Below are positions 5,228-46,619 of a stretch of 64,000 nucleotides of DNA, one piece after another; within the stretch, counting starts at the first letter, position 1; each line of letters starts with the position of its first letter. Made by a program: the position numbers and the translations under genes. The DNA comes from Candidatus Krumholzibacteriota bacterium. GTDB taxonomy: Bacteria > Krumholzibacteriota > Krumholzibacteriia > JAJRXK01. The stretch spans positions 32,001-96,000 of the forward strand of contig CAVSGG010000008.1 in NCBI GenBank assembly GCA_963727455.1. Direction: 5' to 3'. The notes beneath the pieces were generated by a model that searched no databases, was not told the DNA's origin, and worked only from the letters and a program-made list of their open reading frames with translations.

Positions 5228-5617
5228 TCAACTCGCCACGAAGCGATTTCTCGGAGTTTCCACGAGTTCGACGGAAACCAGCTGTGGGCCTCCTGCAAAC
5301 TCTTGCTCTAGCCAGCGCCGGAACACTAGAGCGAGATTCTCACCCGTGGTCACCTCGTCGATGATGTCATCGAGGTGGCGGTGGTCCACTTTGGAGATCA
5401 GACACTCCTCGACGCGCCGATCGACTTGCAAACGATCGAAGAGCATGCCGGTGAGCGGATCCGGCTCTCCCTCGAAGAGGACGACGAGCTCGTAGTTATG
5501 CCCGTGCCCACCTTCGTTTGCGCACTTTCCGTAGACCTCCTCGTTCTCCTCTTCGGCCAAGGCGGAGGTATACAAGCGGTGCGAAGCCTCGAAGCGGTAG
5601 ATCCGTCCCACCCTCAT
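5228..5617 (-). CDS. 6-pyruvoyl-tetrahydropterin synthase family protein (C-X5-HGH type)
   Basis: ASHRL, CANEGGHGHNY, TTGENLA, ETP; ATGA overlap with the upstream paralogue. Confidence 0.9.
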   Translation of the reverse strand: MRVGRIYRFEASHRLYTSALAEEENEEVYGKCANEGGHGHNYELVVLFEGEPDPLTGMLFDRLQVDRRVEECLISKVDHRHLDDIIDEVTTGENLALVFRRWLEQEFAGGPQLVSVELVETPRNRFVAS

Positions 5618-6054
5618 TGCGTCGGCTCCCTTTCCAGCTCTGCAAAGAGGTCTTCGCTCTCCCACAGGCGAATCAAGGAGAGCCGGCATTTGCCCAGCTC
5701 GGCGATCGGTTGCTCCAGAACCGACCAGAGGTAGCGAACGATATTCTCACAGCTCGGGATGACGTCGGTGAAATACTCGAGATCATAGTTGAGGAAAGAG
5801 TGGTCGAGCTTCTCCACCACGATCTGGCGCAGCAGTTTGTCCAGATCGGCCAGATTGATCACCATGCCCGTGACCGGATCCACCGGACCTTCCACACCAA
5901 CCTCAAGGCGATAGTTGTGTCCGTGCCCGTGCGGCCGGTTGCAGGCACCGAACACTTCACGATTCTGCTCTTCGCTAAGCGCCTCGCTGTGATAGCGATG
6001 TCCGGCGCAGAAGCGCACCGTCCTGAGGATTCGAAGGCGGGAAGTCGCGGACAA
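5614..6054 (-). CDS. 6-pyruvoyl-tetrahydropterin synthase family protein (C-X5-HGH type)
   Basis: AGHRY, CNRPHGHGHNY, LDHSFLN, SCEN, WES; TTG start with GAGGAGG SD. Confidence 0.92.
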   Translation of the reverse strand: MSATSRLRILRTVRFCAGHRYHSEALSEEQNREVFGACNRPHGHGHNYRLEVGVEGPVDPVTGMVINLADLDKLLRQIVVEKLDHSFLNYDLEYFTDVIPSCENIVRYLWSVLEQPIAELGKCRLSLIRLWESEDLFAELEREPTQ

Positions 6055-6188
6055 TTGGCACCTCCTCGCTAAGCGTCAGTTCGATCGCGAGCTCGGGAGG
6101 GGATCTGCAGTCACAAAAGTTCCCATAGGATATGACGCTCCTTGCCTACTCGCCACGAGCGAAAGCGGAACCGATCCGTGCGTCGAAC

Positions 6189-6926
6189 TCACACGAGGTG
6201 GAGTCCGCCGTCGACCGAGAAGTCGCTGCCAGTGGTCCAGGAAGATTCCTTGGAAGCGAGAAAGAGTATCGCGCTTGCCACTTCGTCTGCCGTGCCCACG
6301 CGACCGAGAGGATGCATCGTTGCAGCCCCTTTCAGATCCGCGCCCCTGTGGATCGGAGTCTGTACGATACCGGGACTCACGCTGACCACGCGAATTCCAT
6401 GCTCGGCCCATTCCAGGGCCAGCGATTGTCCCAAGGAGAGGAGGGCGGCCTTGGACGCGCAGTAGGCAGCGGCCCCGGGTACCGGCCGGTGAGCCAGGTT
6501 GCTGAGCACGTTGACCACCACGGCATCCTCGGCGGCCTCAAGCCAAGGATGCGCCGCCTTGCACAGCAGATAGGGGGCGCGCACGTTCAGCGCGAAATGC
6601 GCCTGCCAATCCGCGAGCTCGAGTTCCAGCACCGAGCGCGGGTGGTAGAGCCCTGCGTTGTTCACCAAAATGTCGATCCCATTCATGCTCCCGGCGGCAC
6701 TGGATACGGCTTGCTCGGCCGCCTCCACTGCATAAAGGTCTAGCGCGAGAACATCGGCGCTGCCGCCCGCGCTTACGATTTCTTCTTGGACCCTGCGGAG
6801 CTTGTCCTCGCCCCGTCCCACCAGGAAAACGGAAGCTCCCGCGCGACTGAATTGTCTGGCGGTTGCGGCGCCAATGCCGCTCCCCCCACCGGTGATCAGC
6901 GCCTTTCGACCGTGCAAAGTGAACAT
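6189..6926 (-). CDS. classical short-chain dehydrogenase/reductase
   Basis: TGGGSGIG, NNAG, YCASK, SPG, DGG; start ATG 6926 with GAGGAG SD. Confidence 0.93.
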   Translation of the reverse strand: MFTLHGRKALITGGGSGIGAATARQFSRAGASVFLVGRGEDKLRRVQEEIVSAGGSADVLALDLYAVEAAEQAVSSAAGSMNGIDILVNNAGLYHPRSVLELELADWQAHFALNVRAPYLLCKAAHPWLEAAEDAVVVNVLSNLAHRPVPGAAAYCASKAALLSLGQSLALEWAEHGIRVVSVSPGIVQTPIHRGADLKGAATMHPLGRVGTADEVASAILFLASKESSWTTGSDFSVDGGLHLV

Positions 6927-7045
6927 CGATGCTCCTCTCTCCACCCTCTGACCTGGTGCCAAAGGGCGTGATCCGGCTTACCCATGATTCCTCAGAATAC
7001 CCGGTCCTTCCCCACACCGCCCCTGGCCGTCGGCTCTGAATCAGG

Positions 7046-7061
7046 TGGCATCCGGGTTGCT
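7046..7061 (+). promoter_or_regulatory. putative sigma54 (-24/-12) promoter
   Basis: TGGCATCCGGGTTGCT = TGGCA-N6-TTGC with exact GG-N10-GC spacing; predicted +1 near 7072. Confidence 0.6.
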
Positions 7062-7071
7062 GTAAGTGTCC

Positions 7072-7208
7072 ACGTACTCGATTTCGCCGGAGGGCGGAAC
7101 GGAAAACGACAGAACGAATTCGGGCTCATCACAAAGTCGTCCCCCCCAGAGATCGTGTGATGAGTGTAGTTCTGGAGTTCCCGTTTTCGTCCTCCGGCGG
7201 ATTTTTTT
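7072..7208 (+). ncRNA. putative ~137-nt rod-shaped small RNA
   Basis: Long imperfect inverted repeat (7083-7133 with 7156-7201), with G.U pairs that work only on the + strand; C7 in the apical loop; T7 run at 7202-7208; no credible + strand CDS. Confidence 0.55.
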
Positions 7209-7229
7209 GCCCGGCATTGCACTGCAAGC

Positions 7230-7910
7230 TCAGCTGTCTCCTTCACCCTCCTCGACGGTTACTGGCTCCCATATTCCCGACTCGCCGAACGCTCCGCCAG
7301 CGGAGACTCTCAGCTTTCCCTCGGCGATCCAGCGCAGGACGCGCGGATAGAGATTGCATTCGGCTTCAAAGACGCGCGCGCGCAGGCTGACCAGATCATC
7401 GGACTCGAGCACCGGAACCTTGATTCGAGCCACAATCTGCCCTGAATCGAAGTACTCATCGACAAGGTGCACGGTTGCCCCACTCTCCTTTTCCCCGGCC
7501 GCGAGCACTGCCGAGTGCACGCGATCGCCGTAGAAGCCGGCTCCCCCGAAGCGGGGGAGCAAAGCCGGGTGAATGTTTAGAACCGGCAACTCGGCGCGAG
7601 AGGAGAGATCGAGAAGAGAGAGGTAGCCGGCAAGGCACAGCAACCGCGCCCCGCGCTCTTGCAGCCAGCGAAAGATCTCGCGATCGCGCTGCGCCCGCCC
7701 GGTGTAGTCAGATTTCTTGAACACTCGCGTGGGGATCTTCGCCTCGGCCGCGATCTGAAGTCCGCGGGCGCGCTCGCGATCGCTGCCGACCGCCACGATG
7801 CGCACTGGCAGCCTCTTCTCCTCGATTTCCTTCAGGAAGTTCGCGAGAGTGCGGCCGGTGCCGCTCAACAGCACGGCGACCGGGAGTTCTTGCGCAGGCT
7901 CGAAGGTCAT
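7230..7910 (-). CDS. purN: phosphoribosylglycinamide formyltransferase
   Basis: SGTGRTL, LAGYL, NIHPALLP, SGATVH.VDE.FDSG. Confidence 0.96.
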   Translation of the reverse strand: MTFEPAQELPVAVLLSGTGRTLANFLKEIEEKRLPVRIVAVGSDRERARGLQIAAEAKIPTRVFKKSDYTGRAQRDREIFRWLQERGARLLCLAGYLSLLDLSSRAELPVLNIHPALLPRFGGAGFYGDRVHSAVLAAGEKESGATVHLVDEYFDSGQIVARIKVPVLESDDLVSLRARVFEAECNLYPRVLRWIAEGKLRVSAGGAFGESGIWEPVTVEEGEGDS

Positions 7911-7932
7911 GGCCTCGGCGATGGCCTCCCCT

Positions 7933-9516
7933 CTACTGAGGTCTTCGGCTCACGAAGGCCAAAGTAATCGCCTGGAACAAAAGGAACAGAGCGAGTGGAA
8001 GCCCTCCCCATTTGGTGTAGGGAGAGGAAGTAGAGCTGGGATGTAGCGTACGCACGATGTAGGTCCGCTCTTGCAGGCGGGTCTGATCCACCACGCGTCC
8101 GCTGGCGAGAACGAAGAAGCAGATTCCGTTGTTGGAACAGCGAACCGTGGGGACACGATTCTCCGCGGATCGCATGACCCCCATGAGACCGTGCTGATAG
8201 GGACCCAGAGTATTTCCGAACCAGCCGTCATTACTCATGTTCACAAGGATCTCGGCACCCTTGCGCACCGCGTCGCGGCTCGGACCGGAGAAGATCGACT
8301 CGAAGCAGATGAGATTGGCGAAGCGGTACCCGTCGACTTCGAAAATCGTACGCTCAGGACCCGGGTCCCATTCGGCCTGTCCGAAGTCTACTTTTCCCAG
8401 AAAGGGAAAGACCCGTTGGAAGGGCATGCGCTCGCCAAATGGTAGAAGGTGCATTTTCCGATAACGCGCCCTCACCGCCCCCGCATCGTCCATCAAGAGA
8501 GAGCTGTTGTAGCGCAAGAGCGAGCCGTCCGACTTGACTTCACGTTCGGGAAAGCCGGTGAGCAGGTAGATTTTCTTGCGCACCACGAGATCTTGAAGCC
8601 GCATGAGATAGCGTGGTGCCCGCAGTACGTCGAGCGGAACCGCCGTCTCCGGCCATACCACCAGGCGCGCGCCGTCGTCCGCCGCCTCTTCACTGAGCTT
8701 CGTGAAGGGAATGAAGGTGGAATCACGACGCGCGGGATCGAATTTGTCCATGAGCGAAACGTTGCCCTGGATCACGCCGACGCGTAAACCCTCTCCGGGC
8801 CCCACTGGCGTCTCCAGAGCCTGCATGGTGTGCGTCCCATAGACCAGAGTGACGCCGTACAAAAGAAGCAGCGCAACCAGAGCCCACCAGCGGTAGAGCA
8901 CGGCGCGGCCAAGTCGCGGAAATTCACCGCGCAGCGAGAGCCAGGTCAAGGCGAGGAGAACGTTGGTCACTGCGACCAGCCAGCTGATGCCCAGCTCGCC
9001 GAAGATCCCGGCCACCTGCAGAATGGGCACGTAATGGAGCTGGGTCATGGCCAGACGCATCCAGGGGAAGCCCAGCTCGCCCGACCCCTCCAGCCACTCC
9101 ACCACGACCCAGATGATGGGAAACCACCAGATGGCCTGTTCGTGATAGTGCTGGCGCAATTTGGCGCTGACCCAGAATACGATCCCGTCGAAGACGGTCA
9201 TGTACAGAGCGAGCAGCACGAGCCCCATCGGCAAAAACAGCCAACGGTATTTCATCGTCGCCGCCGGATCGAGCTGCAAAAGCCAGTAGAGTTCGCTCAG
9301 ATGATGGCTCAAGCCGAAGGAGAGGATGAGCAGCTTGAGACGGAGCGGCCGTGCTTCCCTGAGGTTCCGTGGATGGAAGAGGACGAGCAGAACCGGCACC
9401 AACGCTCCGTAGGCCAAAAAACCCACGGGCGAAGGCGCTCCGGCGATGCTCAGCAGGAGTCCGCTGGTGATGCCGGCAAGAAATTCGGGAGTTGCCCAGA
9501 ACCTAGAACCTTGCAT
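7933..9516 (-). CDS. lnt: apolipoprotein N-acyltransferase
   Basis: TM N-terminus, GFPW, QGN, WPETA, YNS, K.HLLPFGE, ICFE, NDGWFG; start likely ATG 9516 because the promoter -10 lies at 9591-9596. Confidence 0.95.
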   Translation of the reverse strand: MQGSRFWATPEFLAGITSGLLLSIAGAPSPVGFLAYGALVPVLLVLFHPRNLREARPLRLKLLILSFGLSHHLSELYWLLQLDPAATMKYRWLFLPMGLVLLALYMTVFDGIVFWVSAKLRQHYHEQAIWWFPIIWVVVEWLEGSGELGFPWMRLAMTQLHYVPILQVAGIFGELGISWLVAVTNVLLALTWLSLRGEFPRLGRAVLYRWWALVALLLLYGVTLVYGTHTMQALETPVGPGEGLRVGVIQGNVSLMDKFDPARRDSTFIPFTKLSEEAADDGARLVVWPETAVPLDVLRAPRYLMRLQDLVVRKKIYLLTGFPEREVKSDGSLLRYNSSLLMDDAGAVRARYRKMHLLPFGERMPFQRVFPFLGKVDFGQAEWDPGPERTIFEVDGYRFANLICFESIFSGPSRDAVRKGAEILVNMSNDGWFGNTLGPYQHGLMGVMRSAENRVPTVRCSNNGICFFVLASGRVVDQTRLQERTYIVRTLHPSSTSSPYTKWGGLPLALFLLFQAITLAFVSRRPQ

Positions 9517-9626: not shown

Positions 9627-10313
9627 TCATTCCTCGTTGAGAATTCCGTGGATCTTCAGCTTCTGGTAAAAGACCTGTCGGCTGAGATGCAGGGAACGTG
9701 CTGCGCGGCTCTTGTTTCCCCTCGCCCGCCTGAGGGCGCGGCGGAGGAGTTCCGCCTCCCTGCTTGCGAGTTCCCTCGGGCTGGGCTCGCGGGATTCCCT
9801 CTCGAGCTCGCGCTCTCCTGTGTCCATCGTGGAGCGCAAGAGCCAGCTCGGAGGACCCAGGGTGCGCGCGAGCGCCTCCATTCCCTCGCGCGCCACGCGC
9901 AATCTGAGCCCGCCCGGCCGCCAGTTTGCGTCGACCGCGGCCAGAAACGCCACACAGGGGATGCGATCGCCAGGAAAGGGCCAACCAACGAGTCCGTGTA
10001 CGGCACGGCCGCGCAACCACTTCACCAGGGCGTCTTTGGACTCGCGGTCAACGGCAAGAGGACGCGCCCGCAAGAAGAGTTGGCGGTAGCCCGCCAGAGG
10101 CAGGGCGGTCTCGGGGGACTCGACCGGTCCCGAGGGATTCACGACCTGAAGAACCCGGAACACCAGCTCCGATTCACGCGAGGCCTGCACATGCAGACAG
10201 CGCGCGATTCCCAAGATCTCGGCGCCCAGGGCAGCTCGCAGTGCAAGCAGTCGATCGGACAGCTCTTCCTCAGGCACAGAGGGCAGAAACTCTTCGAGTA
10301 CATCGGAATTCAT
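9627..10313 (-). CDS. protein with C-terminal Fis-type HTH (no AAA+ domain), possibly GAF-like N-terminus
   Basis: C-terminus EAELLRRALRRARGNKSRAARSLHLSRQVFYQKLKIHGI; start set at ATG 10313 (MNSDVLEE) because the longer ORF overlaps purM. Confidence 0.7.
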   Translation of the reverse strand: MNSDVLEEFLPSVPEEELSDRLLALRAALGAEILGIARCLHVQASRESELVFRVLQVVNPSGPVESPETALPLAGYRQLFLRARPLAVDRESKDALVKWLRGRAVHGLVGWPFPGDRIPCVAFLAAVDANWRPGGLRLRVAREGMEALARTLGPPSWLLRSTMDTGERELERESREPSPRELASREAELLRRALRRARGNKSRAARSLHLSRQVFYQKLKIHGILNEE

Positions 10314-10361
10314 CGTGAGCACAGAGAGGGAGGCGCGTGCATCTGTCGGCAGCGTCCAAGC

Positions 10362-10377
10362 TGCAAGGCCCGTGCCC
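10362..10377 (-). promoter_or_regulatory. putative sigma54 promoter
   Basis: GGGCACGGGCCTTGCA vs consensus TGGCACG-N4-TTGCW. Confidence 0.6.
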
Positions 10378-10467
10378 CTCGTCCTGGCGCAAAGCGCGGG
10401 GAGAATCGCGTTTCTTGCTGAGGGGCCTGTCCCGTGCTCGGTGCACCGGACAGCGCGTGGGGGCCTT

Positions 10468-11481
10468 CTAGCCCGCTCGAAAGCACACGGGAAGACCCTC
10501 TCCCCGCGCAAGAACGCGTCCGATGGGCATGGGGGGCTCGCGCAACTCCGCGGCAATCCGCGAGGAAATCTCCTCACAAATCACGACCATCCCCAAGCCC
10601 AGGTTGAAGACCCGCCGCATCTCTTCGACTTCGATTCGACCTCGCTCTTGGAGCAATCGGAAGATGGGAGGGATCTGCCAAGAGCCCGCGTCGATTTGGA
10701 CCGCCAGCCCTTCCGGGAGAACTCGGGGAATGTTGTCGACGAGACCGCCTCCGGTGATGTGAGCCAGCGCTGCGATCGACTGATGCGCACGCAGCTCCAT
10801 CACTTGTGACAGATAGCTGCGATGCACCGCGAGAAGCGCATCGGCGAGCGAGCATCCCAGCCCTCCAGGATCCTCGTCCAAAGGAAGCCTGGATTCGCCC
10901 TCGAGCAGGACTTTGCGCGCCAGACTGAATCCATTCGTGTGCAGGCCGCTGGAAGGCCAGGCGTACACCTTCATTCCCTCTCTCACCGACGCGCCGCTGA
11001 TGAGGTCGTTTTCCTCCACTCTCCCCACGATACAGCCGGCCAGGTCGAAGTCCTCACCGTGATACACCCCGGGCATCTCCGCCGTCTCTCCCCCGATCAG
11101 CGCGCAGCCGTTTTCACGGCAGGCCTTGGCGAGCCCCTCCACCACCGCGACAAAGGTCTCTTCGCTCAGACTACCGGTCCCGTAATAGTCCAGGAAGAAG
11201 AGCGGCGTGGCCCCCTGAACCAGGATGTCGTTGACGCAGTGGTTCACCAGGTCCTCGCCGACTCCGCCTGGCTGCTGGGCCGCGAGGGCGATTTTCAGCT
11301 TGGTACCCACTCCGTCGATGGAGGAAACGAGCAGGGATCCGTCGGGCTGCCGATAGAGGCCCCCGAAAGATCCCACCTCCGATGCCACGGCAGGGCCCCA
11401 GGTGGAGCGTATGGCGGCACGGGAAGAGGCGAGCGCTTGGCTGGCGGCGTCGATATCGACCCCGGATTCGCGGTATTTCAT
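10468..11481 (-). CDS. purM: phosphoribosylformylglycinamidine cyclo-ligase
   Basis: YRESGVDI, DGVGTK, LIGGETAEMPG, SSGLHTNG, HITGGG, FNLGLG. Confidence 0.98.
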   Translation of the reverse strand: MKYRESGVDIDAASQALASSRAAIRSTWGPAVASEVGSFGGLYRQPDGSLLVSSIDGVGTKLKIALAAQQPGGVGEDLVNHCVNDILVQGATPLFFLDYYGTGSLSEETFVAVVEGLAKACRENGCALIGGETAEMPGVYHGEDFDLAGCIVGRVEENDLISGASVREGMKVYAWPSSGLHTNGFSLARKVLLEGESRLPLDEDPGGLGCSLADALLAVHRSYLSQVMELRAHQSIAALAHITGGGLVDNIPRVLPEGLAVQIDAGSWQIPPIFRLLQERGRIEVEEMRRVFNLGLGMVVICEEISSRIAAELREPPMPIGRVLARGEGLPVCFRAG

Positions 11482-11556: not shown

Positions 11557-12909
11557 CTAGCCCACCGGCAGGCCGACGGGAAGCTCGGCCTCGCGCGTGG
11601 CAGCGTCGTGCAGAATTCTCTGGATCTCCAGGGCGGTACCGTCTGCCTGAGCGATCACCTTGAAGCTGCCGTCGGCGTACATCGACTCGATTGCATCGAC
11701 CACGTCCTCGGCGAACTGGCTCCCCTTGAAGCGGCGCAACTCCTCCATGCACTGCTCGAGCGAGAGCGCAGCCCGGTAGGGACGGTTGGAGGTCATGGCG
11801 TCAATTGCGTCGCAACAGTTGAGGATGCGGCTGCCCAGTTTGACCTCGTCGTCGCGTAGACCGTCGGGATAGCCCAGGCCATCCGGACGCTCGTGGTGAT
11901 GACGCACCAAGTCCGCCGCGCCCTTGAGGAACTTCATTTGAGAGACAATTTCGCCCCCGATCGCGGGATGGGAAGCGAGGATGTCGAACTCGTCCTTGGT
12001 CAGGCGCGCCGGTTTGCAGACGATGTCGTTGGTGATGGCGATCTTGCCTATGTCGTGCAGCAGTCCGGCGTACTCGAGCTCCTCGAGTTCCTCCGGCCCC
12101 ATTCCCATCCGCTGACCGATCTGCACTGCGTACTTCGCCACGCGATAGCTGTGCCCGTGCGTGTAGGGCTCGTCCGCTTCCAGGGCGGTGGTGAGCGCGG
12201 CCACGGTGTTGATGTGCGCTTCCTTCATTTCCTCGAAGAGCTTGTGGCTCTGCCAGATGATGAACAGCGGCAATCCAAAGAGCAGCAGCGACCAGAGTCC
12301 CGCGTACTCGTAGGAGAAGATGAGGAAAGCGCTCAGGGGTGCGGTGAGCAGGCCACTCAAAAAGTGCCAGGCGTAGTCGCCGCGCCAAACTTGATTCCAG
12401 GTCCGCCCTTCATTCAGGACGAGAACCGTGCTGGTGAGCGTCATGTTGACGCCAGAGAAAACCATGTGTGCCACGAGCGCGGGAATGAGGAACAGCGGCG
12501 AGGAGAGACTATCGACGCTGCTCCAGGGCAAGCTATGAAAAACGATGCCGGCCACTCCAACGGAGAAAGTCATCATCGCGATGTTGAAGATGACCTTCAA
12601 CGGAGAGCGACGCTTGATCAAGCCATCGCCCACCAGCAAACTCGCGCCTTCCATAAGCATCGCGGCAGCCGGACCGAGGGTTGCGATCACCGCAATGTCC
12701 ACGGTGGAGGAGGCCAGCCAGTCTCCGCCTGCTGAGGTCTTGACCTCGAAGAAATCGACTCCGATCAAGAACACACTGAAGCAGAGGATCGGAAGCCACT
12801 GAAGTGGTGAGATGGGGTAACGCTGAAATACCCACCAGCCCAACGCGTACGCCGCTACGGTGAGGACAAGAACGTAGAGAATTGCGATTGGTTTGCGGCG
12901 TATGAGCAT
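11557..12909 (-). CDS. membrane-bound HD-GYP cyclic dinucleotide phosphodiesterase
   Basis: ~220-aa multi-TM N-terminus, then HGHSYRV, LLHDIGK, HHHER.DGLGYP, DAIDAMTSNRPYR. Confidence 0.92.
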   Translation of the reverse strand: MLIRRKPIAILYVLVLTVAAYALGWWVFQRYPISPLQWLPILCFSVFLIGVDFFEVKTSAGGDWLASSTVDIAVIATLGPAAAMLMEGASLLVGDGLIKRRSPLKVIFNIAMMTFSVGVAGIVFHSLPWSSVDSLSSPLFLIPALVAHMVFSGVNMTLTSTVLVLNEGRTWNQVWRGDYAWHFLSGLLTAPLSAFLIFSYEYAGLWSLLLFGLPLFIIWQSHKLFEEMKEAHINTVAALTTALEADEPYTHGHSYRVAKYAVQIGQRMGMGPEELEELEYAGLLHDIGKIAITNDIVCKPARLTKDEFDILASHPAIGGEIVSQMKFLKGAADLVRHHHERPDGLGYPDGLRDDEVKLGSRILNCCDAIDAMTSNRPYRAALSLEQCMEELRRFKGSQFAEDVVDAIESMYADGSFKVIAQADGTALEIQRILHDAATREAELPVGLPVG

Positions 12910-14954: not shown

Positions 14955-16685
14955 TCACATTTGCTCCGGGGTGTCCATCCCCAGCAGAGTCAGCGTGTTG
15001 GCCAAGACGACGCGCGTCGCCGAACTCAGCGCCAGACGCGCGCGTGAGAGATCCGAGTCGTCCGTGAGGATCCTGCAATGCTGGTAGAAGTGATGGAATG
15101 CCGACGCCAAATCGACGGAATATCTCGTCAAGCGCGATACCTCGCGAGTCGCAGCGCTGCGCGCAATGATGTGCGGCAGATCGGGCAGTAGCCGGCAAAG
15201 CGCAATCTCCGCGTCTTCGCATAGAAGTCTCAGTTCTTTCTCCGTGGCTGGATGTTTGTCCGCGCCCTGAGCCTTCGCATTGCGCAGCACACTGCAGATC
15301 CGGGCGTGCGCGTACTTCACATACCAACCGGGATTGTCATTGCTCTGCTTCCGCGCCAGGTCCAAATCAAAATCCAGATGGGAGGAGTTTTTGCGCGACA
15401 AGAAGAAGAACCGCGCCACGTCCGCGCCCACATCATCGATGAGCTGATCCATGGTCACCAGTCGGCCCGCGCGCTTGGACATCTCCAGGGGAAGACCGTC
15501 TTGGATGAGGTTCACTTGCTGCAAAAGGATGATCTCGAGCCAATTGGGCGGAAAACCCAAGCACTCGCTGGCCGCCGCCATGCGAGCGATGTAGCCGTGG
15601 TGGTCGGGTCCCAGAAGATCAATGGCCACCTCCGCTCCGCGTTCCTTCTTGCTCAAGTGGTAGGCGATGTCGGGCAGAAAGTAGGTGGGCACGCCATCGC
15701 TCTTCACCAAAACCCGGTCTTTCTCGTCCTCGAATTCGCCCGTGGCCAGCCAGGTCGCGCCGTCCTTTTCGTAGACGTGTCCGGCATCCTTCAAAGTCTC
15801 CAGAGTCTTCTCGAGCTTTCCACTGCGGTGCAGCTCCGTTTCGAGATACCAGGAGTCGAAGCGAACTCCGTAGCGCCGGCAGGTCGCCCTTTGGGAGAGA
15901 AGCATCGCGGCAATCCCGAAGGAGCCGAAGGCCTGAGCGGAATCCTCGTCGCTTTTAAGCGCGAGCCAATCGTCCGGCTCACCCTTGGGCAAGGAGAGAT
16001 CTCCGATGATCCGTCCCGCCTCTTCATCGCTCTCCTGGCTGAGAAGAGAGGTGCCACGCTCCAGCAATTTGCGCGCGAGTTCCTCCAGGTACTCGCCTTG
16101 GTATCCCTCTTCGGGCAGCTCGACCGCCTCCCCTTTCGCCTGGAGATAGCGCGCCCGGAAACTGCGTCCGAAGAGCAGGACCTGCCGGCCGGCATTGTTC
16201 ACGTAGAACTCGCTGCTGGGCCGATAACCCGCGCGTTCCATGACGCGATGCAGAGTCGAACCCACCGCGGCGGCCCGTGCGCTCACGATGTTCAAGGGTC
16301 CCGTGGGATTCGCGCTGATGTACTCCAGGCTGATACGCTCTCCCTCCCCGGCCTGGCTGCGCCCGTAGTCCTCGGCCTCTTCCAGGATGCGAAGAATCGG
16401 CTCGGTCAACGCTTGGTGCGAATAACGGAAGTTGATGAAACCCGGACCCGCGATCTCCAGCGACTCCACTAGCGACTTATCCAGCTCCAGGCTTGCCGCG
16501 ATCTCTCCCGCGAGCTCCCGGGGCTTGCGTTCGAGACGCTTCGCCAAAAGTAGAGCGACGTTGGAGCTGAGATCTCCGTGGCTGGGGTCCTTGGGCTGCT
16601 CCAGCTCGAGGCGCACGTCCTCCTCGAAGACACCGTAGCCCTCCAAGGCCTTCATGAGGGCGTCGCGAATGAGCTTCTCGATCAT
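14955..16685 (-). CDS. argS: arginine--tRNA ligase
   Basis: HGDLSSN, AGPGFIN, SANPTGPL, MSKRAG, YVKYAHAR, TPEQM end. Confidence 0.97.
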   Translation of the reverse strand: MIEKLIRDALMKALEGYGVFEEDVRLELEQPKDPSHGDLSSNVALLLAKRLERKPRELAGEIAASLELDKSLVESLEIAGPGFINFRYSHQALTEPILRILEEAEDYGRSQAGEGERISLEYISANPTGPLNIVSARAAAVGSTLHRVMERAGYRPSSEFYVNNAGRQVLLFGRSFRARYLQAKGEAVELPEEGYQGEYLEELARKLLERGTSLLSQESDEEAGRIIGDLSLPKGEPDDWLALKSDEDSAQAFGSFGIAAMLLSQRATCRRYGVRFDSWYLETELHRSGKLEKTLETLKDAGHVYEKDGATWLATGEFEDEKDRVLVKSDGVPTYFLPDIAYHLSKKERGAEVAIDLLGPDHHGYIARMAAASECLGFPPNWLEIILLQQVNLIQDGLPLEMSKRAGRLVTMDQLIDDVGADVARFFFLSRKNSSHLDFDLDLARKQSNDNPGWYVKYAHARICSVLRNAKAQGADKHPATEKELRLLCEDAEIALCRLLPDLPHIIARSAATREVSRLTRYSVDLASAFHHFYQHCRILTDDSDLSRARLALSSATRVVLANTLTLLGMDTPEQM

Positions 16686-17050
16686 TGGGAAGCTCCACTT
16701 TCGTCGAAGCGTGTAAGAGGTGCATCGCCCCAGAGTCTCTCCAGAGCGTAGTAACTACGGGCCCGGGGCTGCATTACGTGCGCGACCACGTCGAAGAAAT
16801 CGATGAGTACCCAGCTTCCCACGTCCTTCCCTTCCACATGGAGAGGTTTCTCGCCTCGAGTCTGGGCCCCATCCAGGATTGCATTGGCAATCGTCCGCAC
16901 CTGGAGTTGGGAGCCCCCGCTGAGAAGAACGAAGTAGTCGGTGACGTCGCTCAACTCGCTGACATCGAGGAGAACCACGTCCTCCGCCTTTTTCGAAAGA
17001 CCCCATTCCACGATGGCGCGAGCCAGCTCATGGCTTTGCTCTTTGTTCAT
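16682..17050 (-). CDS. rsfS: ribosome silencing factor
   Basis: KKAEDVVLLDV, TDYFV, WVLIDFFDVVAHV, YALERLW. Confidence 0.95.
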   Translation of the reverse strand: MNKEQSHELARAIVEWGLSKKAEDVVLLDVSELSDVTDYFVLLSGGSQLQVRTIANAILDGAQTRGEKPLHVEGKDVGSWVLIDFFDVVAHVMQPRARSYYALERLWGDAPLTRFDESGASQ

Positions 17051-17086
17051 AGTCTCGTCCGCAAAAGATTCCACGAGAATTGAGGC

Positions 17087-18085
17087 TCAGTTGAGGCGGC
17101 GAAGCACATAGTCCACCGCGTCGCTGAGGATCGCGGTCTGAGGATGCGGGCCGAGCGCATGGAGGCTCTCCTTCGCGCGCTCACCATAGTGCGCGGCCAT
17201 CTTGGAGGCATATTCCAATCCACCGTGCTGGTGCACCATTTCACGGACTTCGGCCCACAGACGAGGCTCGTCCGGACCGGCCACCATCGCCTTGCGCAGC
17301 CGCGCTTTCAGTGGAGCTGACGCGTTTCGCCAGGCCGCGATGAACGGAAGCGTGATACGCCCCTCGCGCCAATCCCCTCCTACCGGCTTGCCAAGCCGCT
17401 TGGGATCGCCGCGATAGTCGAAAATGTCATCGGTGATCTGAAAGGCCATTCCCAAGTTCTGTCCGAATGCTGAAAGAGCAGGGCGATGGTGTTGCAAACC
17501 GGGATGGAACAGCGCGCCGATTTCGCAAGAGGCCGCGATCAAACACGCGGTCTTCTCGGAGATGATCGTGAAGTAGTCCTCTTCCGGTAGGTCGAGGCGA
17601 CTGCGACTCTCCAGCTGCATCATCTCCGCCACGCTCATGCGGTGCGTGGTGGCCGCGATGATTCGCATCGCATCCTCCATGCCGCGCGCGGTGAGCAGGG
17701 AAAAGACCTTGGTGTAGAGGAAGTCGCCCATGATGAGTGCGGCCGCAGGACCCCACTTTACGTTCACGGTAGGAAGACGGCGGCGCGTGGCTGCATCGTC
17801 GATGAAATCGTCGTGAACTAGCGTTGCGGTGTGGACCAGCTCGACACAGGCCGCCGCGAATGCGGCATCCGGATGCATCTCGCTGCCGTTCTTGGAGGCA
17901 ATGAGCACTAGAGTCGGGCGAAAGCGCTTGGACTTCCCCTCTTTCAAATGCTCGCAGATCTTCCCCAGCAGCTCCAGCTCACCGTTGAGAAGGGTCTCGT
18001 ACTCGCGCTCGAAGGAAATCAACTCCTCGGCCACGAAGGACTGAAGCGACTGGAGTTTGACGCGGTCCTCGCCGGCCAGAGGCAC
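17087..18085 (-). CDS. polyprenyl diphosphate synthase (IspB-like)
   Basis: KRFRP, LVHDDFID...RR, FQITDDIFD, GGDWREG. Confidence 0.93.
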   Translation of the reverse strand: MPLAGEDRVKLQSLQSFVAEELISFEREYETLLNGELELLGKICEHLKEGKSKRFRPTLVLIASKNGSEMHPDAAFAAACVELVHTATLVHDDFIDDAATRRRLPTVNVKWGPAAALIMGDFLYTKVFSLLTARGMEDAMRIIAATTHRMSVAEMMQLESRSRLDLPEEDYFTIISEKTACLIAASCEIGALFHPGLQHHRPALSAFGQNLGMAFQITDDIFDYRGDPKRLGKPVGGDWREGRITLPFIAAWRNASAPLKARLRKAMVAGPDEPRLWAEVREMVHQHGGLEYASKMAAHYGERAKESLHALGPHPQTAILSDAVDYVLRRLN

Positions 18086-19432: not shown

Positions 19433-20680
19433 TCAGGTCAATTCCGGATACAGGGGATGTGCGTTGGCGAGACTTCGGCTGCGCTGGCGAAGTTCCTCGA
19501 GCTCCGGACTCTCGAGTCCCACGCTCAGCGCGCGGCCGATGATCTCCGCGATCTCTTCCATTTCGGCTTCCTTCATGCCGCGCGTGGTAAGAGCAGGAGT
19601 TCCGATGCGGATTCCACTGGTGACGAAGGGCGATTCCGGGTCGAAGGGAATGGTGTTCTTGTTCACCGTGATGCCGACTTTCTCGAGAATCTCCTCGGCG
19701 GCTTTGCCGGTCAGCTTTTTTCCCCTGACGTCCACCAGTAGCAGGTGCGTATCCGTACCTCCACTCACCAAGCGGAGACCGTGTTCGGTGAGACGCTCTC
19801 CCAGCCTCTTGGCATTGGCGAGAGTTTGCTTCTGATCGACGAGGAAGGGCTCCCGCATCGCCTCCAGAAAGCAAACCGCTTTGGCGGCGATGATGTGCAT
19901 GAAAGGCCCGCCCTGAGTCCCGGGAAAGTTGATTTTGTTGACCGCTTTGGAACTCTCGGGATCCATGGTGAGAATCAAGCCCCCACGCGGACCTCGCAGA
20001 GTCTTGTGCGTGGTAGAAGTCACTACGGTCGCGTGCGGCATGGGATCGGGATGCAACTTTGCCGCGACCAGGCCGGCGAAGTGCGCCATGTCGACCAGAA
20101 GCGGAATCTCGAGTTCGCGTGAAATCTGTCCCAATTTCTTGAAATCCCAGGCGCGCGGATAGGCGCTGCTTCCGGTGACCAAGAGCGCGGGGCGCAGTTC
20201 CTTGCACTGCTTCTTCAAGGCATCGTAGTCGATTCTCTCGCTCTCGCGATCCACCTCGTAGTGGTGAGCCTCGAAGAGCATTCCACTGAAGTTGACCTTG
20301 TGCCCGTGGGTGAGGTGGCCCCCGTGACTCAAACTGAGTCCCAGCACTTTCGATCCGGGATTCACGAAGGCAAGGTAGGCCGTGAGATTCGCAGAGGAAC
20401 CTGAGTGAGGCTGCACATTGGCGTAGGCGGCACCGAAAAGCTCCTTGGCTCGATCGCGCGCAAGCCGCTCCGCCTCATCGACGAATTCGCAGCCCCCGTA
20501 GTAACGGCGTCCAGGGTATCCCTCCGCGTACTTGTTGGTGAGTACGCTGCCCATCGCTTCCATCACTGCCAAACTGGTGAAGTTCTCGCTCGCGATCATC
20601 TCCAACTGGCCGCGTTGGCGGTTCAGTTCGTTGTTCACCACTTCGGCAATCGCGGGATCAACCGACTTCAGGTTGTTCAT
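19433..20680 (-). CDS. glyA: serine hydroxymethyltransferase
   Basis: [33 protein letters not shown]. Confidence 0.99.
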
Positions 20681-44000: not shown

Positions 44001-46568
44001 CTGTGAAGCCAATCCGAGAGAATCCGTCTCTCCCACTCCGGAAAGTACCCCGTCGAGCAGGTCGCTGGAAAACACGGTGACCTCGACGCCAGCCACCGGG
44101 TTTCCGTAAGTGTCGGTGGCCAGGGCCGCGACCAGTTCCGAGCCGCCCACCACGAGATCGCGCGCGCCGTTGGGTTGCAGGACGAGTGAAACGGTCTGTC
44201 CGGCGGTAGCGACGGCGTTGAAGTTCAAGGGCGACGCGAAGGAAGTCTCCGCCGAGAGACTCTGTGGACCGGCCACCGTGCCCAATTCCCACAGATCACA
44301 GCTCGCGTAGCCCAGTGAATCACTGAGAGCTGCACTCTGATCACCCGGAGCGAGGGGATCCGTGTCGACACGTCCACCGTCGGTCGGAAGGAACTGGACG
44401 GAAGCGCCACTCACGGGATTGCCAAAGGCATCCAGCACGCGCGTTCTAAGCGCCAGCGCTAGGGCAGTTCCCACCGTGGCGCTCTGTCCGTCTCCCGAAA
44501 TCTCTTGCAGAACACTCGCGGGAGCGGCAAGAAACTCAAGATCCACCTCAGCTGAAGCCGATCCGTCACTGAGAGTGACACTCAGATCTTCCGCCAAGGT
44601 GTTCGTCAGCTGGAGCTCGACTCTTCCCGAGTCGGCCGGAGCGAAGACGTAGTCCGCCTCACCGGAGGGCAGAAGGCTCAGACTGCCAGCGCCGTTGCTC
44701 GCCCAGCTCAGATTGCTCCCGTCACCGATACTCGTGCTTGAAAGATGCATCGTGCCGCCGTAGCCGCTCACGCGGTTTCCCGATACATCCAGCGCATCCA
44801 CCTGAATAGCCAGGGCTGCACCCGCTGTTCCGACATTTCCCGCCGGAAGGTTCACCGTGAAATGGTCGAGCGGTCCGGGCACGAATTCCAAGTTCCGTTG
44901 GGGCCCCACCAATAGACCATCGAGGCTTGCCTGCGCAGTTCCCGCGCCGGCTGCAGTGGAACGCAGGCGCGCATGAAACTCTCCCAACGCATCACTGCTC
45001 GCGTCCAACTTGTCGAGCTGCCACGCAGCGGAGAGCGTGAAACCGATGCGGCTCGAGTCGATCCCCGCCACAGGATTCCCGAACGCGTCTTTCAGGCCCA
45101 ATAACAAGTCGATGGTATCGACTCCGTCTGCGACCGCGGATGCGTTGGCGGAGAGCGAGGTGGCAGAAGAATCCACGGCAGAGGCGGTGAATACGGCGAG
45201 GGGTTGGGCGCTGAGCGCCGCACCGCCGGCCGTTACGCTCACTGGCCTGGTGCCAGCGGTCGTCGAACGAAGCCGTGCCGCGAAAGTACCGTCCGTCGCG
45301 CTCGATCCACTCAGCTTCTCCACCGCGACCGCGCTGGCGCTGATCACGATCTGCGCGCTGTCCACCCCGGCCACGGCATTGTCGAAGGCATCTCGCAGAG
45401 TCGTCTGCAGAGTCGTGAAATCCGTACCATCCGCCAGCGCCGGCCCGCTGACCACGGCTGAGGAATGGTCGGGGTCCACGGGTCCCGCGCGGAAATCGAT
45501 GTCAAGAGTATCACTCAGTGCCACTCCACCTACGGTAACGGCGAGGCGACGTGAGGACGCGACAGTGGTGCGCAAGAGGGTCGTAAACGAGCCATCCAGG
45601 GCCGAACTTGCCGCCAATTTTTCCACGGACAGTCCATCTCCCAGTACCGTGAAGACAATTGCGGACGAGTCCACGCCCGAAACCGCGAGTCCTCCACCGT
45701 CGCGTAGAACGAGGTCCACCTGGATTGCATCCACACCGTCCGCTACTGCGCCCGGGCCGCCACTCAGGCTTGATTGTGTCGAGTCGATCGCTCGCGGCGT
45801 GAATTCGATCACTGGGTGATCGCTGAGCGTCGTTCCATCCACTGCCGCGTCCAGACTCCAAGAACCAGCCAGAAGCGTTCTGACCCGCAGGGGGAAGCTG
45901 CCCTCGGCTGCACTCGCCGCCGACGGCTTCTCCACCGTGAAAGCGGAAGCTGACAACGCGGCTGAAATTCGCGCACTGTCCACTCCTGCAATCGTGTTCC
46001 CAAAGGAGTCGCGCAGGACCAAAGTGACCGAGCTGAACGCGCTTCCGTCGGCCACAACCGGTGAAGTTGAACTCACCGAGCTCTGCTGTGAATCCACTGC
46101 AGCGGGAATCAAGGTGATCGAGGCCTGGTCGTAGCCCAAATCCGGAGAGCTGGTCGATCCATCGACCACCGTGAGTCCAACGGGAAGCGAAGTGACGTGG
46201 GTGGCGCGATACAGGAGATCCACTCCGGAGGAATCGGCGGCGATGCTGGCCGAACTCACCGCGGGCCCTCCCACGAAGCGATAGTAACTTCCGGAGGAAT
46301 TGTCGCTGAAGAGGTCGATTACCTGCGCAGCGGATACGGGCGAAGGATCGCCGGAGACATCCACACTGGAGACCCGAATGGGCAAGTACTCCCCCGCGAT
46401 GGCCGTGTCCGAGGCGGCCTGGATCACCAGGGCTGAGGGGGGTTGCACGGCCAGGGCCGTCCGAGGCAATAGCAGGCAGATGCACGCCGCGCTGAGGAGC
46501 AGGGAAACCCGTCCCAGTTGAGCGAGACGTTCGTGAATGCGCGTGAGTGGTCCCGGCATAGTGTTCAT
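38016..46568 (-). CDS. giant (2850 aa) secreted Ig-like repeat protein with T9SS-like C-terminal domain
   Basis: Signal peptide; invasin/Big-type ADG...LRD.FGN repeats; many D-x-x-G-N units; C-terminus SYPNPF...IFDLLG...WDGRN..G..V.NGVY...IAVTR. Confidence 0.9.
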   Translation of the reverse strand: MNTMPGPLTRIHERLAQLGRVSLLLSAACICLLLPRTALAVQPPSALVIQAASDTAIAGEYLPIRVSSVDVSGDPSPVSAAQVIDLFSDNSSGSYYRFVGGPAVSSASIAADSSGVDLLYRATHVTSLPVGLTVVDGSTSSPDLGYDQASITLIPAAVDSQQSSVSSTSPVVADGSAFSSVTLVLRDSFGNTIAGVDSARISAALSASAFTVEKPSAASAAEGSFPLRVRTLLAGSWSLDAAVDGTTLSDHPVIEFTPRAIDSTQSSLSGGPGAVADGVDAIQVDLVLRDGGGLAVSGVDSSAIVFTVLGDGLSVEKLAASSALDGSFTTLLRTTVASSRRLAVTVGGVALSDTLDIDFRAGPVDPDHSSAVVSGPALADGTDFTTLQTTLRDAFDNAVAGVDSAQIVISASAVAVEKLSGSSATDGTFAARLRSTTAGTRPVSVTAGGAALSAQPLAVFTASAVDSSATSLSANASAVADGVDTIDLLLGLKDAFGNPVAGIDSSRIGFTLSAAWQLDKLDASSDALGEFHARLRSTAAGAGTAQASLDGLLVGPQRNLEFVPGPLDHFTVNLPAGNVGTAGAALAIQVDALDVSGNRVSGYGGTMHLSSTSIGDGSNLSWASNGAGSLSLLPSGEADYVFAPADSGRVELQLTNTLAEDLSVTLSDGSASAEVDLEFLAAPASVLQEISGDGQSATVGTALALALRTRVLDAFGNPVSGASVQFLPTDGGRVDTDPLAPGDQSAALSDSLGYASCDLWELGTVAGPQSLSAETSFASPLNFNAVATAGQTVSLVLQPNGARDLVVGGSELVAALATDTYGNPVAGVEVTVFSSDLLDGVLSGVGETDSLGLASQRGLTDVDGQIHVMYHAPSAAGRQDVLDASSSQVPSAAVQDLVYTSVVGSASAIELALPTGGIEAGVEGSFGLALVDSFSNTSFTNSATVIVHADPSTGLAFSAQSGGPYLDTLNLPVNGQATVYYQGSVAGTHALTADDSAAFLDGDSGSLQILANSMVADYQLAYPAIVTAGTPFSLSATAYDAFGNVASAALDSFSFDLVDGADTTTVVSLPLMVSEGQLTRGTFSTSLQRIDTSGSYRIRLSADGKGYVGPPLTVGPASAYELASTSADTLSGVTSGSSVNLGVQVLDAFGNAVGNEALNVLSLEGGVIQVGPTVSDGNGQATFTVLTDSTVQTLRLRVGILDGNPVGRETVLFVVQTVAGPIASLSVFPSQTNVTAGQNLPLAITALDAAGNQVLAAADSIMLSSTGSGVVLTPDEGALNAGLLSASARDTLVEQFSITASLKSQPSINAQSPLISVASGTAFQLRAVGDTLQSAPAGTTVSLLARVVDAYGNAVSGVPVHLSLLASPAGASLEDPTAPPDDGLASTDSNGELSFDLHLSATSGDHRVRASILDGNPAALETARWTVQALPGSADHLELAISDTLFTAGDPNTLTIIAKDSAGNVVDLTGQLVFNSTPSGVGVTPSPASLVAGKATVELSALQAGPLTVDVSLASLPAVTGSLNNLLVVPASASGTIPVPLVDPSENTANGLSVTRLSAGPIRDAFGNVVATGTSVDVSATGGGIISDDFDLQRSGVQRASDESGMVDLRLASPLTAGTVTVSFASAAATGSANAIFAAPAALAIDGTLAPAAAVPGQDLNFTISLQNKGGVDAILDAGLSQLRIEDGQGGILSASLLSDTTVPASSSRTLSFGTATLPASFALGSFRPTLQLAGQDIHGQAVTSFIVLPQGSFLVSALVIRSVAHETQAVPGDTLNLRVTVENLGAGPIGISQLALQSSPPADFTLVDQDPLGTVAAGGQNDLSSRVRVGTATPPGTYRFIARVTGTVAGADFTAPPDSSATPLLVSAASQLEFVDGSVSPSRIHYGADLLLKARVKNNGGATVSLNPATSLASFGGGLWSGALTTSLALAPGQEAELSFGPTPVDAALGSRSQDLQLHLEGTENSFAFSADLIGAGAITTETPANLALVPTPLEPASALRGSTVAFKLSLQNQGEAEIVLDPLATRFNFGEPQGTRIGAVLDPLGPSKLTTGSTQLAFSPLSLPSDLALGTPQGYLQVRGTQNGLPFSTDLALPDGTLSLFDPAGLRILSTVALNPSAPLTQVNTGQLIPVRVVVGNNAGEAIDSLTVRLGGSAVPASSAADILIPRLQSSEVDTLYFDTTVTTSPGPESLRVSIVRALSSTTQQEIIPQTPLDDLANLQVQQPVSLSFNAELVDSLDPLTMSVSPGQVISVRFALDENNSLQESGSWLPVQVDFSSLQGFTLDSQSTLPVQLDPSNPQATIQLVAPATAQTAELVAELSRVDLDVNDPDARPLTTASSQTLQVEVFGGVSFNSCGLSILSPQGAQDTVLSTGQTFTLQGEVDGPANLQQRSLELLLPPQLALVGGNARQEMVPGQTTVSWQLLCSSTPVSGLLLRTVAHATDVQSGSVLADTCASSALDIVEAAHAVPRLAILEPNSARDRGELPPGAVVELRGDFALSGSAQVLGPARLHLSVPSGFTILDGQPASVDLADPSDQFVWRVQGPMSLDLGVQKITLTAEQIPVDENSGLAAGESTAESTVALSILADPLRLTISDLSDTGPLIGSDRIYERLAMHLSNGHPEAVHFTQLELTLVDDAGQPFADPSSFLQTIQVRRTDGTGSWSATVGGNPVSIPVDLVIDSDTSAAFRVGAQAKSDAGYVSFRFAVDGGSASILDSGGFELSYALLDVEGGGHSLILAGHSVTAKASSELDAHSYPNPFVPSRQPATLSYSLPESGPVEIEIFDLLGKRVRQWSFANGSPETEPGIHDGDVLWDGRNGLGQEVRNGVYLCRVRAAGREIYFRIAVTR
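44870..46090 (-). repeat. four tandem ~105-aa invasin-like Ig repeats (protein level)
   Basis: VVADGSAF..LRDSFGNTIAGVDS; AVADGVDA..LRDGGGLAVSGVDS; ALADGTDF..LRDAFDNAVAGVDS; AVADGVDT..LKDAFGNPVAGIDS; bounds approximate. Confidence 0.75.
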
Positions 46569-46603: not shown

Positions 46604-46619
46604 AGCAATGACCGTGCCC
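46604..46619 (-). promoter_or_regulatory. putative sigma54 promoter of the giant-protein operon
   Basis: GGGCACGGTCATTGCT, GG-N10-GC, 35 nt upstream of ATG 46568. Confidence 0.62.

Follow-up and report, generated by a model that had tools for sequence, protein, structure and literature searches.

Genes and features of the locus

The window, as we call the whole 64-kb stretch of DNA analyzed here, is ordinary chromosomal housekeeping DNA with a G+C content of 61%. The element under study lies in a gap between two minus-strand genes, which a sequence-only reading of this DNA had put at about 300 bp and which measures 294 bp, from the start ATG of a short-chain dehydrogenase (SDR) gene at 6935 to the stop of purN at 7230. 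Based on Pfam matches, the minus strand encodes purM, a 228-aa HTH_8 protein, lnt and purN on the purN side of the gap, and SDR, a PTPS-family enzyme and GTP cyclohydrolase I (folE) on the SDR side. The element is convergent with purN and divergent from the SDR gene. The features of the locus are as follows, with L001 denoting the closest relative described below.

6189..6935, minus strand: short-chain dehydrogenase (SDR), the divergent neighbour and first gene of SDR-PTPS-folE (Pfam adh_short_C2, PTPS, GTP_cyclohydroI)
6981..7003, no strand assigned: conserved upstream block CCCATGATTCCYCAGARTACCC, ~45-65 nt ahead of the -24 element, its sequence kept in a spacer that has otherwise diverged
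7046..7061, plus strand: sigma-54-type promoter TGGCATCCGGGTTGCT, with the -24 GG at 7047-48 and the -12 GC at 7059-60, 12 nt apart
7072..7208, plus strand: putative sRNA transcript of ~137 nt, its 5' end inferred from the promoter geometry
7072..7082, plus strand: 5' single-stranded tail ACGUACUCGAU, unpaired probability mostly 0.8-1.0, one base different in L001
7083..7201, plus strand: single long irregular hairpin of 119 nt and 43 pairs (MFE and centroid structures; RNAalifold with L001)
7116..7123, plus strand: internal loop GAAUUCGG, the largest of the hairpin
7141..7147, plus strand: C7 run within the loop GTCCCCCCCAG, identical in L001
7142..7148, plus strand: predicted apical heptaloop CCCCCCA, unpaired probability 0.98-1.0
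7202..7208, plus strand: U7 tract, intrinsic terminator (terminator scan match), kept in L001
7230..7910, minus strand: purN, formyl transferase, the convergent neighbour (Pfam Formyl_trans_N)

No plausible plus-strand gene follows the element. Two open reading frames run through the hairpin, 7066-7350 and 7157-7390; only 7066-7350 was scanned in Pfam, where it has no match, and both frames are broken in L001 by a 1-nt indel. A protein-coding reading was rejected on these grounds, and the earlier claim that no plus-strand gene is in need of this terminator holds. A riboswitch or leader in the window was also rejected, since the next gene, purN, is convergent and there is no same-strand gene to regulate.

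A sigma-54-type promoter

Sigma-54 promoters have TGGCAC-N5-TTGCW-like boxes in which GG and GC are exactly 12 nt apart, counted from first G to G. The -24/-12 element that had been claimed for this gap is present: TGGCATCCGGGTTGCT at 7046-7061 on the plus strand has the correct GG/GC spacing and is the single match to TGGCAY-N5-TTGCW on both strands of the 64-kb window, where 0.02 matches are expected from shuffles; at least one match was found in 2 of 100 shuffled windows. The counterpart in L001, at 10848-10863 on the minus strand, is identical in 16 of 16 positions, with only 30% identity over the next 10 nt. In the alignment of 11 loci described below, the GGCA and TGC of the two boxes (GG-N10-GC) are invariant at a mean column identity of 46%. 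From its promoter sequence, the transcription of the element is quite probably sigma-54-dependent.

The upstream block CCCATGATTCCYCAGARTACCC has a counterpart in L001 at about 10905-10927 on the minus strand, where the interval separating it from the promoter is shortened by an 11-nt deletion, corresponding to one helical turn. The block could be an activator or IHF site, or else the promoter of the divergent SDR operon. It is noted that other boxes of this class occur in both genomes. In the window, the sigma-54-like box GGGCACGGTCATTGCT (46604-46619, minus strand) ends 36 nt before the start, at 46568, of a gene for a 2850-aa Big_1/Invasin_D3/CARDB surface protein. L001 has a second perfect consensus box, TGGCACCATCCTTGCT, at 20276-20291 on the plus strand, 34 nt ahead of an ORF that encodes a lipid A acyltransferase domain.

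Fold of the predicted transcript

The segment 7072-7210 on the plus strand folds at -63.6 kcal/mol (z -5.9), a stability equaled by none of 200 shuffles. The minus strand folds at -52.0 kcal/mol (z -3.1; 2 of 200 shuffles equally stable), so that the plus-strand RNA is 11.6 kcal/mol more stable than its reverse complement. The four nested helices reported earlier were all found, together with the loop GTCCCCCCCAG and the T7 at 7202-7208. The argument that G.U pairs favour the plus strand is likewise borne out: the minus strand folds worse, and five G.U pairs are kept in both the window and L001, with which the reading as a plus-strand RNA agrees. The U7 tract directly follows the CGCCGGAGG/CCUCCGGCG base of the hairpin, as in an intrinsic terminator, and only about 11 nt of single strand lie outside the loops in the form shared by the window and L001.

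The internal loop at 7116-7123 contains a self-complementary GAAUUC, is unpaired with a probability of 0.8-0.99 and is identical in L001. On the predicted fold, it could serve as a kissing or dimerisation site or as a second seed.

The same element in the closest relative

A genome-collection search with PurN as the query returned 80 loci, with the window's own genome not among these. The closest relative among the 80 is L001, a Krumholzibacteriota metagenome-assembled genome (MAG) with a PurN 68% identical. The element recurs there in the corresponding position, with its orientation unchanged. RNA identity between the window and L001 is 92.7%, compared to 68-73% for the flanking coding sequences and 48-63% for the flanking intergenic DNA. 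Alignment of the RNA segment of 139-140 nt has 11 non-identical columns. Three pairs have changed on both sides in L001 (C-G to U-A, A-U to G-C and U-A to C-G); further changes include one A-U to G-U and a 1-nt indel that is incompatible with coding. With compensatory changes present and no conserved frame, the compensatory pairs and the frame-breaking indel together therefore identify a structured non-coding RNA read from the plus strand.

It should be mentioned that purN (10001-10662), PTPS (12219-12678) and ctpS (16143-17820) of L001 each match the window protein as two segments, which for purN and PTPS lie in different frames. The split genes may be frameshifts, assembly errors or pseudogenes.

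Copy number and novelty

The element has no second copy in the 64-kb window and occurs no more than once in each of the 80 loci (1.3 Mb), and blastn against plasmid and phage collections returned no match to it. A MITE or REP-type repeat, a concern of the sequence-only reading that dispersed copies would have substantiated, was rejected on the basis of this single copy per locus and the missing plasmid or phage match. Scanning of 6000-8500 of the window against Rfam 15 (cmscan, evalue mode) found nothing at the element and only an irrelevant lncRNA match of 9.4 bits at 6808-6957; no known family thus accounts for the RNA, as had been anticipated. Covariance models of RsaE/RoxS and other Rfam sRNA families gave no match. 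Rfam cmscan at the corresponding positions of four distant loci (L010, L012, L013 and L014) was also without a match, with sub-threshold miRNA/lncRNA-type matches elsewhere. In the literature, no small RNA described for Krumholzibacteriota was found among the matches listed, and work on sigma-54, sRNAs and C-rich loops concerned, among the matches listed, only other phyla. Unmatched in Rfam 15, the element represents a new RNA family, of a kind that is already known.

A probable wider family in Krumholzibacteriia

About 16 further Krumholzibacteriia-like loci have a PurN 47-59% identical, and the clade loci share the gene order ispA-argS-pfkB-...-purM-x-lnt-purN-...-folE-trxB-kdsB-ctpS. The interval between purN and folE (5228-7229 in the window; L003-L018) is a variable slot. 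The window and L001 have SDR and PTPS there, and an nfnAB-like pair, encoded on the opposite strand, fills it in L004-L008, L010, L011, L013 and L014; in L003, L012, L016 and L018 it is almost empty.

Inspection of this interval revealed nine distant loci with an equivalent element (L003, L004, L005, L006, L010, L011, L012, L013 and L014). All nine have a sigma-54-like box, NGGCAY-N5-NTGCW, on the strand opposite to folE, and in each of them a long terminal hairpin is built on an AAGGGCC/GGCCCUU base; most also have a small 5' hairpin after the promoter. A run of 5-6 C lies in a predicted 7-nt apical loop (YUCCCCC closed by G-C) in eight of the nine, the exception being L003, where the C-run is partly paired in the individual fold. 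The T-rich tail is strong in five loci and weak in four. Across the promoter-to-terminator alignment of 11 loci, five loop C are invariant. Overall, the element is present in 11 of 15 assessable clade genomes (the window and 14 loci), always in the purN-folE slot and opposite to folE, and is absent from the other four (L007, L008, L016 and L018). L002, L009 and L015 were left out of this count, as their sequence ends too soon after purN.

RNAalifold of the nine distant hairpins gives 22 consensus pairs, 14 of which have compensatory changes on both sides. In the nine-member alignment derived from a covariance model, 80.3% of cells are paired compared to 64.4% in shuffles, the pairing statistics being favoured somewhat by the fitting of this alignment to the structure. 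None of 500 shuffles reaches the observed covariation on any of five measures, and sliding the partners lowers every measure. Of the homologues with covariation in related MAGs that the sequence-only reading had proposed to look for, L001 provides one, with its three compensatory pairs; these nine further loci provide architectural equivalents, with 14 of 22 pairs covarying.

A composite test led to the same position. In 1.3 Mb there are 53 relaxed sigma-54-like sites (25 in the clade and 28 outside), nine of which are followed by a C-run in an apical loop and a T-tract, and all nine of these lie at the purN-folE slot; L003 and L005 fail the strict composite rule. Promoter and C-run are separated by 95 nt in both the window and L001, by 93-96 nt in L010, L011, L013 and L014, and by 112-120 nt in three distant members.

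Joining the two sequence types by covariance models failed in both directions. The model R1, built from the window and L001 and searched in the window and the 80 loci (1.3 Mb), finds none of the nine distant copies. The model R2, built from the nine distant loci, recovers all nine at 47-76 bits and has no match in the window or L001 at E<=10, its best score there being 3.2 bits with filters off (6900-7300). The models leave the two types unlinked, and it is therefore from position and architecture that we infer their common descent. What makes the window/L001 type and the nine-locus type equivalent is their slot, orientation, promoter class, spacing, loop motif and terminator. Protein identity between the two groups is about 50%, a level at which the stems of sRNAs are expected to be unrecognisable.

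The window/L001 form has in common with the nine-locus RNA the slot, the orientation, the promoter class, a C-rich heptaloop at the apex and a terminal hairpin that also serves as the terminator. It differs in lacking the small 5' hairpin and the AAGGGCC/GGCCCUU base, in the length of the terminal hairpin (119 nt versus roughly 70-100 nt) and in the loop register, which is CCCCCCA closed by C-G versus YUCCCCC closed by G-C.

The terminator adjoins the 3' end of the convergent purN in four cases (the window, L001, L003 and L012), with nothing further on that strand. In 7 of the 11 loci an nfnAB-like operon lies downstream on the same strand, its start 136-175 nt beyond the end of the hairpin segment; the encoded proteins have Fer4_20 plus Pyr_redox_2 and DHODB_Fe-S_bind domains. 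A conserved AT-rich region and a dyad separate the terminator from nfnA in the nfnAB-bearing loci. A conserved dyad of the TGATA-N11-TATCA type and an AT-rich promoter-like stretch were observed before the nfnAB-like operon in L005, L010, L013 and L014. The common denominator of the element in the 11 loci is a separate transcription unit.

Sigma-54 activators in the clade

At 14 clade loci, a full enhancer-binding protein with GAFTGA is encoded between purM and lnt; the seven of these proteins that were checked in Pfam have Sigma54_activat, AAA_lid_14 and HTH_8. As far as the encoded proteins indicate, sigma-54 is in use in the class Krumholzibacteriia. Sigma-54-like boxes precede several of the clade activator genes. 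Within the 64-kb window there is no rpoN and no complete enhancer-binding protein, GAFTGA is absent, and no Sigma54_activat domain was found in the 42 ORFs scanned.

A truncated activator gene lies between purM and lnt in the window (9627-10313, minus strand) and in L001 (7595-8284, plus strand). The encoded proteins have 228-229 aa only. Compared with a 538-aa activator, their residues 16-190 correspond to 17-189, and their residues 186-224 (HTH_8) to 490-528. By this alignment, the protein in the window and L001 has lost an AAA+ module of about 300 aa, a loss that would leave it unable to activate sigma-54. The truncated activator may act as a DNA-binding repressor or competitor, given its conservation in two species (59% identity).

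Upstream of the truncated gene, a sigma-54-like box GGGCACGGGCCTTGCA was observed in the window at 10362-10377 (minus strand), ~45 nt before the ATG, with the counterpart AGGCATGCAGCTTGCA at 7536-7551 in L001. A TGTCC...GGACA dyad lies upstream of this box in the window (about 10400-10440) and in L001. In L013, L014 and L015, TGGCAY-N5-NTGCA and palindromes of the GGGACATGTCCC type were observed upstream of the activator gene. The GGGACA/TGTCCC dyads upstream of the gene in these three loci and the TGTCC..GGACA dyads of the window and L001 are its presumed sites, and the arrangement suggests that the activator gene may be autoregulated.

The neighbouring activator was considered as the regulator of the sRNA and rejected. 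Neither its GGGACA/TGTCCC half-sites nor the TGTCC..GGACA form occurs upstream of any of the 11 sRNA promoters, and the syntenic activator is also present in four loci without the sRNA. No upstream activator site shared among the 11 sRNA promoters was found. Since the local protein has no AAA+ module and its sites are missing at the 11 sRNA promoters, the activator of the sRNA is probably encoded outside the 64-kb window.

Possible targets of the C-rich loop

The apical loop was compared with 40 translation-initiation regions in the window, and its best duplex was matched by 84 of 200 shuffled seeds. For the 5' tail and the internal loop, shuffled seeds were equal in 136 and 90 of 200, respectively. 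None of the three accessible segments thus has a target better than shuffles among the 40 start regions. Two targets had been named by the sequence-only reading and were not supported. At the ribosome-binding site at 54943, GGGAGGGG is present but 68 of 500 shuffled targets are as good; for the DUF4388 gene the number is 271 of 500. Both were rejected, the duplex energies being no better than those of shuffled targets. The neighbouring genes were rejected as well, pairing of the loop being within shuffles for the divergent folE/SDR leader in 9 of 11 loci and for the nfnA start region in 6 of 7 loci. There are 22 G-runs of at least 6 in the window, and only one lies just upstream of a start codon, at -38 of lnt; in L001 it reads GGGAGG.

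These tests cover 64 kb of one genome and the neighbouring genes in relatives. They span a small part of one genome and are therefore a weak argument against pairing in trans. Of the earlier proposal of a new trans-acting sRNA, a stand-alone plus-strand non-coding gene with a sigma-54-type promoter and a terminator, not in Rfam, stands, while the named targets are at the level of shuffles. C-rich regions of RoxS are described as pairing with G-rich target sites in the relevant passages of PMC5419742. By analogy, the C-loop would pair as a seed with G-rich regions of mRNAs. A trans-acting base-pairing RNA is favoured here because the C-rich loop is conserved on a covarying stem and because of the RoxS precedent.

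Proposed mode of action and alternative explanations

We propose that RNA polymerase with sigma-54 would bind the -24/-12 element at 7046-7061, an activity read from its sequence. On some signal, an enhancer-binding ATPase encoded outside the window would open the promoter, with transcription starting near 7072. According to folding and comparison, the transcript would then fold into the long irregular hairpin at 7083-7201, and transcription would stop near 7208, short of the convergent purN, at the GC-rich hairpin base with the U7. The working part would be the exposed C-rich apical loop at 7141-7148, a C-rich apical loop being the one feature that all 11 versions of the element share. Most likely it would pair with G-rich stretches, for example ribosome-binding regions, of mRNAs encoded elsewhere, and such pairing would alter the translation or stability of the target.

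The confidence differs among the parts of this proposal. That the element is a real, conserved, structured RNA gene can be stated with high confidence. Action in trans by base pairing of the C-loop has a little less than an even chance by analogy with known RNAs. Taken as a whole, a stand-alone, sigma-54-dependent, trans-acting sRNA of ~137 nt, formed by one hairpin with a working C-loop, is with moderate confidence the best explanation. With its promoter, hairpin, terminator and look-alikes in the same slot of relatives, the element is very likely an undescribed regulatory RNA gene.

The closest competitor keeps the RNA gene and changes the partner of the loop. The C-rich heptaloop on its rigid stem would dock an RNA-binding protein, such as a KH-type poly(C) binder or a chaperone, and the RNA would titrate or recruit that protein. 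An invariant short loop motif on a long helix whose stems covary freely is what such docking would leave behind, no mRNA partner is detectable in the window or in the neighbouring genes tested, and the window/L001 form leaves only about 11 nt unpaired outside its loops. However, no candidate binding protein was identified in the window, and the RNA has a single loop and no repeated motifs, which sponge RNAs typically carry. The target tests, having covered a small part of one genome, also carry little weight against base pairing. We consider protein docking rather unlikely. Action in cis at its own locus is less probable still. The element would be a two-way terminator or insulator between purN and SDR-PTPS-folE, or a perfect antisense to purN read-through RNA that directs its cleavage, with no distant targets. 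Its position at a boundary of convergent or divergent units in every case fits this explanation, as do the A-tract before and T-tract after the hairpin in L003, L012 and L014, which make bidirectional termination possible, and the minus-strand RNA still folds at -52 kcal/mol. However, the minus-strand hairpin in the window is followed by AAAUCGAGU with no U-tract, and on that strand A.C mismatches would take the place of the G.U pairs that both species keep. Neither a fixed distance to a sigma-54 promoter nor conservation of a C-rich loop would be required of a terminator, and in 7 loci the downstream neighbour is the same-strand nfnAB-like operon and not purN.

That operon raises the question of a leader or attenuator with regulated read-through into nfnAB in relatives, of which the window copy would be a remnant after the loss of nfnAB. 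The same-strand operon in 7 of the 11 loci, starting at the distance from the hairpin segment given above (136-175 nt), is compatible with it. We regard this explanation as very unlikely: in the window, L001, L003 and L012 that strand carries nothing downstream, the window/L001 RNA is strongly constrained (about 93% identity with compensatory changes), and the nfnAB genes appear to have their own promoter in the conserved AT-rich promoter-like region with its dyad. Least probable of all, to the point of being hardly credible, is that there is no gene and that a promoter-like string lies by chance next to a palindromic repeat (MITE/REP-type) or an ordinary terminator. Long, near-perfect intergenic palindromes are indeed typical of such repeats. 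Nevertheless, the element occurs no more than once in the window and in each of the 80 related or unrelated loci (1.3 Mb), and the plasmid and phage collections have no match to it; in 11 genomes its syntenic position is unchanged, with pairs that covary and a promoter whose core is invariant.

A broader and speculative extension of the trans-acting sRNA, which we think improbable as a whole, is that it is an ancient sigma-54-gated sRNA and the first recognised riboregulator of Krumholzibacteriota, kept beside folE, purN and often nfnAB through the history of the class. The C-loop would couple the signal of the enhancer-binding protein to one-carbon, purine or redox metabolism, through G-rich start regions or a poly(C)-binding protein, and the window lineage would have remodelled the RNA to a 119-nt hairpin. 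The genes folE, purN and nfnAB serve pterin/folate, purine and NADPH supply, and the single 119-nt hairpin and the loss of the AAA+ module from the neighbouring activator occur in the same lineage.

Comparison with known systems

The candidate is comparatively well supported by promoter, structure, terminator, covariation and synteny in 11 genomes, and could be entered in RNA family databases. It could serve as a metatranscriptome marker for sigma-54 activity in uncultured Krumholzibacteriota. The two sequence types also illustrate that the stems of an sRNA can become too divergent for covariance models to link, with the promoter class, position, length and loop motif still retained. No new principle is involved, sigma-54-dependent sRNAs and C-rich seed loops both being established.

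As a long irregular hairpin RNA, the element resembles 6S RNA. It differs in its smaller size, in the absence of a large central bubble and in its intrinsic terminator, and Rfam gave no 6S match to it at E<=10.

C-rich motifs that pair with G-rich or Shine-Dalgarno regions are found in several sRNAs, including RepG of Helicobacter and CcsR of Rhodobacter. With RoxS/RsaE of Firmicutes, as far as these are characterized in the relevant passages of PMC5419742, the element has in common a conserved unpaired C-run in a hairpin loop, a plausible seed for G-rich partners. Unlike RoxS/RsaE, it has one C-run instead of three or four, a sigma-54-type promoter and putative targets, and the Rfam scans gave no homology between them.

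Several further sRNAs depend on RpoN, including Qrr, GlmY/GlmZ, Pxr, CrcZ and NfiS. The element differs from RpoN-dependent sRNAs in having no sequence or structure match in Rfam 15, in belonging to the phylum Krumholzibacteriota and in forming one long hairpin, not several short stem-loops. What it would share with NrsZ of Pseudomonas aeruginosa and GlnZ of enterobacteria, as these RpoN-dependent sRNAs are described in the relevant passages of PMC9731577, is -24/-12-gated synthesis, which implies an enhancer-binding ATPase, and the organization as a stand-alone gene with its own terminator.
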